Source of the DNA: Escherichia coli O127:H6 str. E2348/69
Lineage (GTDB): Bacteria > Pseudomonadota > Gammaproteobacteria > Enterobacterales > Enterobacteriaceae
DNA length: 64,000 nt
Assembly: GCF_000026545.1 (NCBI RefSeq)
Contig: NC_011601.1
Reading direction: 5' to 3' (one strand)
A program made the translations under genes and the position numbers. Positions 54,506 through 57,390 of the stretch are shown here, piece by piece (position 1 is the first letter of the stretch; every line of letters begins with the position of its first letter). Under the pieces are notes generated by a model, which did not search any database, was not told where the DNA came from, and saw only the letters and a program-made list of their open reading frames with translations.

Positions 54506-55396
54506 TTATTTCAGCGCGCCTGGTGAGAAGAAATCAACAATTGCGCCGGTTTTTTGCATATTAATATTAGCTTGTTCAATGTTGAGCTGGGCGACAGAGA
54601 CAAAAAACGCGTCCAGCAAAGTCAGTTGTAATATTCTTGCCGAGGCATTACGACCTAATAACGGTGTTTCCGGGGCCGGTGAGCAAATAATATAATCGGC
54701 CAGCTTCGCTATTGGTGAATGATAGCTATGCGTTATACAAATAATCTTTGCCCCGTTCTTTTTTGCCAGTTCTACAGCCGCTTTTACATCACTGGTTCGC
54801 CCGGAATGGGTCACCACCAGCACCACATCTCCTTCCTGTAACAACGAAGCAGACATCATCATGATGTGAGCGTCCGGATAGGCCTGGCAGCGTACGCCAA
54901 TGCGCAAAAACTTGTGCTGTACATCAGCACAGATAGCATTTGATCCTCCGGCACCGTACAAATCCCGCTGTCTGGCCTGATAGAAAAAGCGGGCGGCACG
55001 GTGGATCTCATCAACGTTGACGATCGACTGACCTTCCATAATGGTGCGTAAAGTGATGTTAAATACCTTATTCACCACATCCTGCGGCGCTTCATCAAAA
55101 GCCAACTCGGAAGGCAATACTTGTTCTGACTGAGAAAAATAATCTTCCAGCGCACTGCGTAAGTTACGAAAGCCGCTAAACCCCAGCAGCTTTGATACCT
55201 TAACGATCATCGCTTCAGATACCGCCAGAGCTTCTGCGACATCTTTAATTGCGGGTGCACAACTCAGGTTACCGGGTTTGAGTAACCACTCCACGATGCG
55301 GCTTTCGTTTTCTGTCATTCCTTCCTGCTTCATTCGCAGGTAAGGCGCTAACCCGATACCGTTCGGAAGCGCTGAATCAAACTCTGACTGGCTCAT
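54506..55396 (-). CDS. rpiR: RpiR/AlsR transcriptional repressor (HTH + SIS domain)
   Basis: About 296 aa from MSQSEFDSALPNGIGLAPYL; track start 55429 is an extension. Confidence 0.88.
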   Translation of the reverse strand: MSQSEFDSALPNGIGLAPYLRMKQEGMTENESRIVEWLLKPGNLSCAPAIKDVAEALAVSEAMIVKVSKLLGFSGFRNLRSALEDYFSQSEQVLPSELAFDEAPQDVVNKVFNITLRTIMEGQSIVNVDEIHRAARFFYQARQRDLYGAGGSNAICADVQHKFLRIGVRCQAYPDAHIMMMSASLLQEGDVVLVVTHSGRTSDVKAAVELAKKNGAKIICITHSYHSPIAKLADYIICSPAPETPLLGRNASARILQLTLLDAFFVSVAQLNIEQANINMQKTGAIVDFFSPGALK

Positions 55397-55749
55397 CACG
55401 TTCTCTTGTCCTTGAATTGAAGACGCCACTATATCACCACAGCAAGAACAGAAAAGATGCTGGCAACTTCACAAAAAAATAAAATTTATAAAGTTTGTTT
55501 TGTTGTGAATAATGGAGAGTGGCTTAAAATTTCATTTAATCACTTTAAAAACATGATGTTATTTGTTTTTCTGGTTTATTGGATGATAGATGTTGCTGGA
55601 TAGTGAGTGTCTTTAACGCTATTGCGCTGCCAGATGTAACTCTGTAAAACAGATCAGGAAGGCGGATTTCATCGATTTTGGGTGTTTTTAATTCATTTAC
55701 ATCACAAATGTTTTTTTATTGTGAAGTTTTGCGCGGGCGGGGAAGATGA

Positions 55750-56199
55750 ATGAAAAAGATTGCATTTGGCTGTGATCATGTCGGTTTCATTTTAAAACAT
55801 GAAATAGTGGCACATTTAGTTGAGCGTGGCGTTGAAGTGATTGATAAAGGAACCTGGTCGTCAGAGCGTACTGATTATCCGCATTACGCCAGTCAAGTCG
55901 CACTGGCCGTTGCTGGCGGAGAGGCTGATGGCGGGATTTTGATTTGTGGCACTGGCGTCGGTATTTCGATAGCGGCGAACAAGTTTGCCGGAATTCGCGC
56001 GGTCGTTTGTAGCGAACCTTATTCCGCGCAACTTTCGCGGCAGCATAACGACACCAACGTGCTGGCTTTTGGTTCAAGAGTGGTTGGCCTCGAACTGGCA
56101 AAAATGATTGTCGATGCGTGGCTGGGCGCACAGTACGAAGGCGGTCGTCATCAACAACGCGTGGAGGCGATTACGGCAATAGAGCAGCGGAGAAATTGA
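55750..56199 (+). CDS. rpiB: Ribose-5-phosphate isomerase B / allose-6-phosphate isomerase RpiB
   Basis: 149 aa; MKKIAFGCDHVGFILKHEIVAHL... Confidence 0.95.
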   Translation: MKKIAFGCDHVGFILKHEIVAHLVERGVEVIDKGTWSSERTDYPHYASQVALAVAGGEADGGILICGTGVGISIAANKFAGIRAVVCSEPYSAQLSRQHNDTNVLAFGSRVVGLELAKMIVDAWLGAQYEGGRHQQRVEAITAIEQRRN

Positions 56200-56267
56200 G
56201 ATTCATCCACTACTTGCATGGATGAGTAATGACTAATGTGGATAGAGTTTCTTTTTGAGGTTGGCTA

Positions 56268-56597
56268 ATGAAACGCTTTCCGCTATTTCTTTTATTCACC
56301 CTGTTCACGCTGTCCACCGTTCCGGCCCAGGCCGATATTATCGATGACACCATTGGCAATATTCAGCAGGCGATTAACGACGCTTATAACCCTGACCGTG
56401 GGCGAGACTATGAAGATTCGCACGACGACGGCTGGCAGCGTGAAGTGAGCGACGATCGGCGCAGACAATATGACGACCGCCGCCGCCAGTTTGAAGATCG
56501 CCGCAGGCAGCTGGACGATCGCCAGCGCCAGCTGGATCAGGAGCGTCGGCAGCTAGAAGATGAAGAGCGGAGAATGGAAGATGAGTATGGGCGGTGA
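56268..56597 (+). CDS. yjdP: Small secreted low-complexity protein YjdP
   Basis: 109 aa; signal peptide then charged D/E-RRRQ heptad-like repeats. Confidence 0.75.
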   Translation: MKRFPLFLLFTLFTLSTVPAQADIIDDTIGNIQQAINDAYNPDRGRDYEDSHDDGWQREVSDDRRRQYDDRRRQFEDRRRQLDDRQRQLDQERRQLEDEERRMEDEYGR

Positions 56598-56631
56598 TGT
56601 TGAGTTTAGAGCAGGCATCGCCCCTCACCCA

Positions 56632-57390
56632 TCACGCCACCCCAATCTCCATCCCATCAAACCCCGCCTCAAACCCCGACGGCAGTGCGTTTTCCATCAG
56701 CCACGCATCAAACTGGTGGTTGATATGGGTCAGAATCACCCGTGGCGAGCGGATAACCTGATTCAGCGCAAGCACGGTATTTAAATCACAGTGATTACGC
56801 GGTGCATCCTCGCGCGGCGGGTGGCTGCAATCAATCACCATTACCTGCGGCTGATTATTGCGTAAAAATTTCAGCGTTTTTTCCGGCAAGCCAGCGGTGT
56901 CAGACAGCCACGCCACCCGGCTGTGTGCCGTTTCCAGCAGATAACCGAAGGTCAGTTTTGAGTGGTTGAGCGGCAGGGGCGTGACCTGTAACCCCTGTAA
57001 ATCAAACACCACAAACGGTTCCATCGTGTGGCTGAAATCAAGCAGGCCCGGATGTTTAAACAGATCGTCGCAGCCCTGTTCATCCGGCGGGCCGTAGACC
57101 GGGATCTGATCGCCCACGCCCCAGCGCAGCGGAAACAGCCCCTGGACGTGATCCATATGATAATGCGTCAGCAAAAACTGCTGGAACGATCCGGGAGACC
57201 AGCGATCGGCGAGATCGTGCAGCCCGGCGTCGATCAGGGTGATCGCCCCGTTAAACTTCACTACGCCGCTGCACGGCTGGCGGCGATACTGCGGTGAGCG
57301 CAGCGCTCTGACGCAGGCTACGCACTCGCAGCCCCATGCCGGAACGCCCTGTGCGCCGCTGGTGCCGGTGAGCGTGAGGGTCAGGCTCAT
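56632..57390 (-). CDS. phnP: Phosphoribosyl 1,2-cyclic phosphate phosphodiesterase PhnP (metallo-beta-lactamase fold)
   Basis: 252 aa from [23 protein letters not shown]; HYHMDH motif. Confidence 0.92.

Follow-up and report, generated by a model that had tools for sequence, protein, structure and literature searches.

YjdP of Escherichia coli: a predicted periplasmic protein with a fixed number of charged heptads and a candidate RcsB-type promoter

Among the genes that are still without a function in the best-studied bacterium is yjdP, which encodes a small protein with a conspicuous series of charged heptads. What kind of structure do these heptads build, in which compartment would it be found, and under which conditions is it made? 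We address these questions for the yjdP copy in a window of 64,000 nucleotides of Escherichia coli O127:H6 str. E2348/69 (GCF_000026545.1, contig NC_011601.1), the window being the whole stretch of DNA that was analysed; all coordinates refer to it. YjdP and its heptads are already known, and are named in NCBIfam, Pfam and RefSeq. The repeat having been catalogued before, the finding as worded in the first-pass annotation, which was made from the letters alone, adds nothing new. The new elements reported here are a conserved RcsB-type promoter, a fixed heptad number and, within the signal peptide, a separate 9-nt repeat. Our overall reading, to which we give a probability of about 0.5, is that YjdP would be a Sec-exported periplasmic protein of three modules, one of them a charged helix, which is switched on through RcsB and has a binding or spacer role.

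The gene, its family and its neighbours

The first-pass annotation had named the gene yjdP, and this name is confirmed by an identity of 100% to E. coli E2348/69 between 56200 and 56640 and by the RefSeq annotation, in which the product is called 'DDRRRQL repeat protein YjdP'. The NCBIfam equivalog model of the same name, NF041443, matches the protein with E = 2e-43 and 146.8 bits (curated cut-off: 90 bits), and the alignment is full-length, with YjdP residues 1-103 on profile positions 1-101 of 101. The E2348/69 protein is a member of this family (NF041443/PF28054) also in its architecture and genomic position, and differs from most E. coli in having Phe13 and His52, where Leu and Arg are usual. 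Pfam PF28054 (YjdP) is precomputed on all yjdP homologues; an older Pfam-A release, which predates PF28054, gave no significant match to YjdP. Two further labels given by one source, 'Skp family' and 'RuvC/YqgF', are unsupported, as no such Pfam or NCBIfam match was found up to E = 10. Rfam returned no match in 55700-57000 on either strand. In the literature on yjdP we found no paper that describes the protein: the mentions are entries in tables, a map landmark and an unrelated use of the name in rice papers.

The variable sites of 15 gap-free orthologues of 109 aa are distributed over codon positions 1, 2 and 3 as 36/25/95 in yjdP as a whole and as 10/3/41 in the repeat region alone. Judged by this pattern and by its family match, yjdP is a real coding gene on the + strand, and conserved in Enterobacteriaceae. 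An antisense ORF of 84 aa (56374..56628) was ruled out as a gene, given that the substitutions track the + frame; long antisense ORFs stay open here because of base composition.

In a HMMER scan of 1.84 billion cluster representatives, 52 YjdP matches were obtained. A scan of one genome per species yielded 75 yjdP loci from about 20 genera of Enterobacteriaceae, among them Escherichia, Citrobacter, Yokenella, Raoultella, Klebsiella (K. oxytoca), Kosakonia, Pluralibacter and Atlantibacter, and likewise Buttiauxella, Kluyvera, Phytobacter, Trabulsiella, Leclercia, Pseudocitrobacter, Dryocola and Entomohabitans; the same scan returned no Salmonella locus. Alignments of 15 and of 26 orthologues reveal a common plan: a signal peptide is followed by a D(I/V/L)(I/V/L)DDAIGNIQQAINDAY segment, a variable linker rich in Asp, Ser and Arg, the heptads and an acidic tail that contains an aromatic residue. 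The architecture by which a family member is recognised, namely the conserved segment ADIIDDxIGNIQQAINDAY, then an acidic linker and then DDRRRQL heptads, is present.

The gene order in E2348/69 (RefSeq) is alsR, rpiB and yjdP, followed by phnP-phnO-phnN on the opposite strand. The 5' neighbour of yjdP varies between lineages and may be alsR-rpiB, an LmvK-like hybrid histidine kinase, an acetyltransferase or another gene. The 5' junction lies immediately upstream of a conserved block, and this block moves with yjdP. Although this flank varies, yjdP is placed tail-to-tail with phnP in about 63 of the 75 loci, over about 20 genera, and one may ask whether YjdP assists in phosphonate (C-P lyase) metabolism. 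The missing yjdP match in Salmonella would agree with this, as Salmonella is not known to have this phn operon. However, the two genes are not co-transcribed because they are convergent, the yjdP promoter has by eye nothing like a Pho box and carries an RcsB-type box instead, and the induction of yjdP comes with envelope stress (see below). Several genera, moreover, keep yjdP without an adjacent phnP (four loci), and in some lineages the two are separated by inserted toxin-antitoxin genes or repeat elements. On these grounds we consider a functional link between YjdP and phosphonate use very improbable. Folding of the yjdP-phnP spacer gave no convincing terminator (z = -1.6).

Table 1. Features of the yjdP locus, with positions in the 64,000-nt window
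Feature	Position	Strand	Remarks
RcsB-box-like element TGAGATTCATCCAC	56197..56210	+	14 bp, begins TGAGA; the rpiB stop codon forms its first three bases
-10-like hexamer TAATGT	56234..56239	+	TAnnnT after the box; putative transcription start near 56246
Shine-Dalgarno GAGG	56257..56260	+	7 nt before ATG; GAG conserved in the upstream alignment
yjdP CDS	56268..56597	+	109 aa and stop, ATG start; ORF list, NF041443 match, RefSeq annotation
Signal peptide, residues 1-22, MKRFPLFLLFTLFTLSTVPAQA	56268..56333	+	predicted cut before Asp23; n, h and c regions, AQA before D
9-nt tandem repeat TTCACCCTG (Phe-Thr-Leu)	56295..56318	+	in signal peptide core; Tandem Repeats Finder (TRF) period 9, 2.7 copies
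N-terminal amphipathic helix, residues 23-40, DIIDDTIGNIQQAINDAY	56334..56387	+	predicted; AF2 helix 21-40 with low pLDDT; conserved
Acidic linker, residues 41-61	56388..56450	+	length and sequence vary between genera; pLDDT <50 for 44-50
Six 21-nt / 7-aa repeats, residues 62-103	56451..56576	+	TRF, lag identity, AF2 helix
Degenerate seventh unit EDEYGR and stop	56577..56597	+	holds the conserved acidic-aromatic tail

Modules of the protein and history of the repeats

A clear signal peptide had been noticed in the first reading of the sequence, and it is borne out: the n-region MKR is followed by a hydrophobic core of 15 residues (FPLFLLFTLFTLSTV) and by PAQA in front of the Asp at which the mature protein would begin. 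The peptide has the features of a Sec signal cut by signal peptidase I, and YjdP contains neither a Cys nor a lipobox nor a twin-Arg motif. A small-x-Ala motif before Asp or Asn is found in 26 of 26 orthologues, as Ala-x-Ala in 25 and as Thr-Arg-Ala in one (Atlantibacter). A peptide of the signal peptidase I type throughout the family lends support, at the level of prediction, to the description of YjdP as secreted or periplasmic, in which 'secreted' should be read as periplasmic, and we infer that YjdP is exported to the periplasm. The papers that mention yjdP contain no proteomic or fractionation report of its export.

The core of the signal peptide is itself repetitive at the DNA level. Its 9-nt unit is expanded in other E. 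coli, in alleles of 112, 118 and 121 aa, and copy-number variation of the contingency type is seen for this unit only and not for the heptads.

The predicted mature YjdP has 87 aa, a pI of about 4.6, a net charge of -9, 54% charged residues and a GRAVY of -2.27. The view that it is made largely of repeats is correct for 42-48 of these 87 residues; the other half consists of the amphipathic helix and the acidic linker, which together (residues 23-61) carry a net charge of -8. The segment of residues 23-40 has a hydrophobic moment of 1.91, compared with 0.74 +/- 0.37 in shuffles (p ~0.002). Its Ile residues alternate at spacings of three and four and occupy successive a/d positions, and in the family alignments it is the best-conserved mature segment apart from the repeats.

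The heptads had been listed as running from DDRRRQY to EDEERRM, and they are exactly as translated: from residue 62 onwards the in-register units are DDRRRQY, DDRRRQF, EDRRRQL, DDRQRQL, DQERRQL and EDEERRM. Behind them the family keeps a [DE][DE][DE][YF] motif, which stands at the C-terminus or close to it. Identity at a lag of seven residues amounts to 26/41 in residues 62-109, compared with 7.7 +/- 2.3 in shuffles, and 0 of 100,000 shuffles equalled it. The DNA has a self-identity of 0.62 at lag 21 and again at lag 42, and of 0.2-0.4 at most other lags; with Tandem Repeats Finder the period comes out as 21 nt, in 4.1 copies (56451-56536), and a DNA repeat search finds 42-nt copies at 21-nt steps. 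An origin by internal duplication, as had been suggested, is supported by this 21-nt periodicity of the DNA and by alleles that differ by clean units of 21 or 42 nt. An allele of 102 aa has five heptads and is short of one clean 21-nt unit; its exact junction occurs in 16 complete E. coli genomes, and the allele is present on many draft assemblies. The E. albertii allele of 123 aa has eight heptads, that is two extra units. A further 157 matches to the query for the 102-aa junction were rejected as register-shifted alignments to ordinary 109-aa alleles (e.g. NU14).

Such clean differences of 21 and 42 nt are what one would see if the heptad array were a rapidly changing contingency repeat, with a copy number that varies from strain to strain. 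A comparison of repeat number across strains, which the first-pass annotation had proposed as a check, makes this scarcely credible. When hydrophobic residues at intervals of seven are chained, the longest chain contains exactly six of them in 71 of 74 species (five in two), and the first heptads (r1 to early r4) have an ungapped match in about 5380 of 5426 complete E. coli genomes (~99%), against the 16 genomes with the 102-aa junction. The truly variable repeat is the 9-nt unit of the signal peptide. Codon sharing among the heptads is at chance level (13 observed versus 12.5 expected from regional codon usage), and the duplication should therefore be old. Individual heptads are also kept in their places across genera, such as DERQRQL in the fourth and DQERRQL in the fifth. 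Because six heptads are found in 71/74 species, the array is to be regarded as old and constrained and not as fast-changing. As judged from the family alignments, it is a structure of fixed length, in which five- and eight-heptad alleles are rare; the same comparisons show that the heptads were duplicated long ago, that each of them keeps an identity of its own and that their number is fixed.

Predicted structure of the repeat helix

An AlphaFold2 (AF2) monomer model, for which the alignment of 15 sequences served as input, consists of a helix at residues 54-108 with a pLDDT of 88-97, a low-confidence helix at residues 21-40 and a disordered stretch at residues 41-53. Its pTM is 0.37, so that no tertiary packing is predicted for YjdP. 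The first-pass annotation had called the protein 'coiled or intrinsically disordered', and each half of this description holds in part: the repeats are predicted to be helical, and residues 41-53 to be disordered. AF2 is prone to draw helices for charged repeats. Moreover, of the 17 acidic residues of the YjdP repeats 10 are Asp, which favours a helix less than Glu does.

The order of the charges bears on the question how such a helix could be held together. In the repeats, opposite charges outnumber like charges by 17 to 2 at i+3 and by 19 to 2 at i+4 (36 versus 4 in total). The corresponding charge-order score is 32, compared with 0.9 +/- 6.3 in shuffles, and 0 of 100,000 shuffles reach 32. 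With 69% charged residues, the region of residues 62-109 has the charge content, and with these pairs also the charge order, that are typical of a charged single alpha-helix.

Could the mature protein be an intrinsically disordered polyampholyte, which acts by its bulk charge as a sink for cations or cationic peptides, or as a hydrophilin-like protectant? Its high proportion of charged residues, low GRAVY and negative net charge would suit such a role, and so would the predicted disorder of the linker, the low confidence of the N-terminal helix, the Asp-rich repeats and the co-induction of yjdP with osmotic and desiccation genes. On the other hand, the charge order is far from random, as intrahelical salt bridges require, and the register, the number of heptads and their residues are kept over about 20 genera, which bulk charge would not demand. 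The pLDDT of 88-97 in the repeats also speaks against disorder. Gly makes up 4 of the 87 residues (4.6%), which is under the hydrophilin threshold of >6%, whereas in hydrophilicity (GRAVY -2.27) YjdP does qualify as a hydrophilin. We hold this explanation to be quite unlikely.

With Leu placed at d, the heptad register reads a = R, R, R, Q, R, E; b = R; c = Q; d = Y, F, L, L, L, M; e = D/E; f = D; g = R/E. A canonical coiled coil has hydrophobic residues at both a and d. The YjdP repeats fail to conform because d is the only hydrophobic core position; a is never hydrophobic in the six heptads, and the conserved hydrophobic stripe on the repeat helix is one residue wide.

Nevertheless, the six heptads could form a parallel coiled-coil homo-oligomer, either a dimer or trimer of the leucine-zipper kind, and thus an Lpp-like bundle and not a monomeric rod. 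The hydrophobic residue at every seventh position is nearly invariant in the family. Placing Leu at d brings Arg to g and Asp or Glu to e, the attractive g-e' pairing that is classical for parallel zippers; that every heptad position is strongly conserved suggests an interface as well. Furthermore, Ile occupies a and d in the N-terminal helix, a combination which favours oligomers under the rules for coiled coils. What weighs against an oligomer is that Arg, Gln or Glu occupies a in all six heptads, so that half of the canonical core is gone. Modelling two copies in tandem (paired alignment) also brought no gain in confidence: the pTM is 0.45, and the pLDDT of the helix falls to 77-89 from 88-97 in the monomer. 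This run was uninformative, and it speaks neither for self-association nor against it. Foldseek searches of the PDB with the monomer and tandem models gave nothing significant, the best structural match included, and a sequence search of the PDB found no solved YjdP homologue. The best PDB sequence match, an M-protein coiled coil (E = 0.006), was set aside as compositional. We regard a coiled-coil oligomer as unlikely.

In the models the repeat helix is closer to a charged single alpha-helix than to a canonical coiled coil, because only d is hydrophobic and a is Arg, and the repeat region would accordingly be read as a monomeric, rod-like helix. At the same time, the Leu stripe and the strict conservation of nearly all seven positions exceed what a single alpha-helix would need. 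These features of the sequence hint at a specific interface, whether with further copies of YjdP or with a partner.

Promoter, proposed role and comparison with known systems

A scan with the sigma-70 consensus found no yjdP promoter, and the promoter described here came from phylogenetic footprinting. In an alignment of the upstream 110 nt from 25 orthologues, an invariant block TTGAGATTCCTCCGCTAC is followed by a variable stretch, TAnCGT and the Shine-Dalgarno sequence. By eye, this block is unlike CpxR, PhoB, sigma-E and BaeR sites, and only the RcsB box fits. The box of the RcsB homodimer has been given as TN(G/A)GAN4TC(T/C)NA (PMC7913699). This box has a low information content. The element upstream of yjdP (TGAGATTCATCCAC) agrees with the published box at 7 of 8 specified positions, the exception being the last, where it has C and the consensus A.

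In all of the 68 orthologous upstream regions the box core is found 70-75 nt ahead of the ATG; being orthologues, these regions are not independent observations. Among these regions, box positions 1, 4, 5, 10 and 11 are invariant. Changes are found at positions 3, 6, 8, 9, 12 and 13 and rarely at 14, all of them degenerate sites with the exception of 14; at the latter, 66 of the 68 regions have C in place of the consensus A. The distance from the box to the TAnnnT hexamer is 23 nt in 58 loci and 24 nt in seven, and thus 23-24 nt in 65 of 68 orthologues. The promoter of rprA is known to carry an RcsB box (PMC7913699); in MG1655 this box, TGAGACGAATCTGA, is centred at -42.5 and stands 23 nt from a TACTAT hexamer. 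In the 64-kb window the box core occurs seven times, compared with about 30 expected from shuffles, and the composite of box and TAnnnT occurs once, at 56197. Because of the conserved box, its spacing of 23-24 nt, the geometry shared with rprA and the single composite in the window, we infer that the yjdP promoter is activated by RcsB, and yjdP becomes a conserved candidate target of Rcs.

Published expression data can be compared with this prediction. Under a LolCDE inhibitor yjdP was up 9.5- and 10.6-fold in RNA-seq, in one induction set with osmB, bdm, wca, ivy, mliC, spy and cpxP, and the authors ascribed the response to Cpx, Rcs and RpoS together (PMC5105897). The induction of yjdP is consistent with an RcsB-type promoter, and it is not specific for Rcs, because the inhibitor also activates Cpx and RpoS. 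A decomposition of transcriptomes by ICA places yjdP together with rpiB in the Crp-2 iModulon, and not in an Rcs module (PMC6892915 supplement). The interval between rpiB and yjdP has no terminator-like site on the + strand, and for this reason, together with the rpiB/CRP grouping, read-through from the upstream gene is a plausible second input. Overproduction of CsiR lowered yjdP 3.5-fold (PMC5217608).

Taken as a whole, our reading of the locus is as follows. A precursor of 109 aa would enter the Sec pathway and, going by its sequence, be cut by signal peptidase I after Ala22, which would leave an acidic periplasmic protein of 87 aa with three modules. The first, the amphipathic helix of 18 residues, is probably a docking or oligomerisation module, and the second, the Asp-rich linker, would be disordered. 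The six in-register heptads would form one helix of about 55 residues and about 8 nm, held by Asp/Glu-Arg salt bridges at i+3 and i+4 and with the d stripe flanked by Arg at a and g, and this helix would be a stiff charged rod rather than a canonical coiled coil. The Rcs envelope-stress phosphorelay may switch on the gene's own promoter, with read-through from the upstream gene (here rpiB) besides. The weakest step concerns the role. YjdP may act in the stressed periplasm as a binding protein or spacer and not as an enzyme; the N-terminal helix could dock either on a partner or on itself, and the rod of fixed length could give reach or an electrostatic surface.

A bolder form of this proposal, which we consider unlikely, sees in YjdP an ancient direct target of RcsB and a rod formed by a charged single alpha-helix (six heptads, ~6-8 nm) that is tethered by the linker to the docking helix, and that would serve as a spacer, ruler or electrostatic binder when the outer membrane or the traffic of lipoproteins is damaged. 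If true, it would add a new structural class to the envelope-stress proteins. The conserved RcsB-type promoter predicts when YjdP is made, and the fixed helix of six heptads and the conserved docking helix point to what should be measured, namely whether the protein is a monomeric rod or an oligomer and which partner it binds. If the reading given above is confirmed, YjdP would be a conserved member of the Rcs envelope-stress regulon with an unusual design for a periplasmic protein.

Several known systems invite comparison. The promoters of rprA and yjdP both have a 14-bp box beginning with TGAGA, a spacer of 23 nt, a TAnnnT hexamer and a box centre near -42.5; in contrast to the rprA box, the candidate box of yjdP ends in C and not in A. 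Like the LTXXQ proteins Spy, CpxP and ZraP, YjdP is small, predicted to be helical and predicted to be exported, and envelope stress induced it along with them in one RNA-seq experiment. Spy, CpxP and ZraP are folded dimers of helical hairpins, whereas YjdP is a predicted repeat rod without similarity to them in sequence or profile: neither the Spy/CpxP/ZraP (LTXXQ) nor the Skp/OmpH profiles of Pfam and NCBIfam matched it up to E = 10.

A further comparison is with Braun's lipoprotein Lpp, a periplasmic trimeric coiled coil with 56 helical residues. YjdP shares with leucine zippers and Lpp strict heptads, Leu at d and charge pairs between g and e, and it would likewise be a small helical envelope protein with a helix of similar length. 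It differs in having Arg at a, in lacking both a lipobox Cys and a C-terminal Lys through which it could be attached to peptidoglycan, and in that the models do not support oligomerisation.

The last comparison is with the charged single alpha-helices of the ER/K motif, which are found e.g. in the medial tail of myosin VI and X and in caldesmon. In contrast to these, YjdP uses Asp and Arg instead of Glu and Lys and has one conserved hydrophobic residue per heptad; its helix has only about 55 residues, is predicted to be periplasmic and is conserved position by position, and the resemblance implies no homology. Nevertheless, like the ER/K helices, YjdP combines a very high density of charge with opposite charges at i+3 and i+4, and its repeats are predicted to form an isolated long helix without tertiary packing.

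Variable surroundings of yjdP on both sides

A comparison of the window with two yjdP-carrying loci from other genomes (L004 and L001) shows the region 5' of yjdP to be a hotspot of replacement. It is occupied by alsR-rpiB in the window; O157:H7 and Citrobacter instead have an LmvK-like hybrid kinase together with a sugar ABC transporter (OI-167, PMC10128022), and strain 14EC033 has an N-acetyltransferase (L088). On the 3' side, the spacer between yjdP and phnP measures only 34 nt in the window. In K-12-like genomes the spacer is 146 nt long (L084, 699-844) and includes a G-rich palindromic repeat, the counterpart of the G-quadruplex-hairpin element that PMC5100583 lists between the two genes. 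In Citrobacter a higB/higA-like pair is inserted at this place (L001, 6487-7157).

A record titled Chryseobacterium sp. 18061 (L012, CACSKA010000007.1) has the hybrid kinase, yjdP and the phn operon arranged as is typical of Enterobacteriaceae; this assembly is probably mislabelled or contaminated.

Features at yjdP in the window
Feature	Position	Description
5' flank of yjdP	54506-56199	
RcsB-box-like element and -10 hexamer	56197-56239	Upstream of yjdP; conserved
Inverted repeat TCATCCA/TGGATGA	56203-56225	Perfect, 7 bp; 9-nt spacer; overlaps the right half of the box
Second tandem repeat of yjdP	56295-56318	9-nt unit TTCACCCTG (Phe-Thr-Leu); 2.7 copies
yjdP-phnP spacer	56598-56631	

Length variation and disruption of yjdP

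The 9-nt repeat, which encodes FTL units, forms part of the signal peptide's hydrophobic core. Other E. coli alleles carry about four units (112 aa), six (118 aa, JJ2434) or seven (121 aa, FCI23), and expansion was seen in about 4 of 40 evenly spaced hits. Because the additional units lengthen the hydrophobic core, to approximately 24-27 residues in expanded alleles, the predicted signal of these alleles might act as a membrane anchor instead of being cleaved.

Natural knock-outs of yjdP exist: in E. coli FLI21 the gene is interrupted by an IS1 element (L085, 1569-2674). The copy of Citrobacter koseri NCTC10786 can be read only if several frameshifts are introduced (L079, 4920-5330), which reflects either a pseudogene or long-read indel errors.

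The RcsB-type promoter block

The degenerate RcsB-box core T-N-R-G-A-N4-T-C-Y is apparently depleted in the 64-kb window, where it occurs only seven times across the two strands together, compared to about 30 occurrences expected from mononucleotide shuffles. The inverted repeat that overlaps the box lacks conservation beyond E. coli and might act as a weak attenuator of transcription that reads through from rpiB.

The box contains a TGA that doubles as the stop codon of the 5' neighbour, whichever gene that neighbour is: rpiB here, whereas O157 and Citrobacter have a hybrid histidine kinase in this place. The distance between box and hexamer upstream of yjdP is equal to that in the RcsB-activated rprA promoter.
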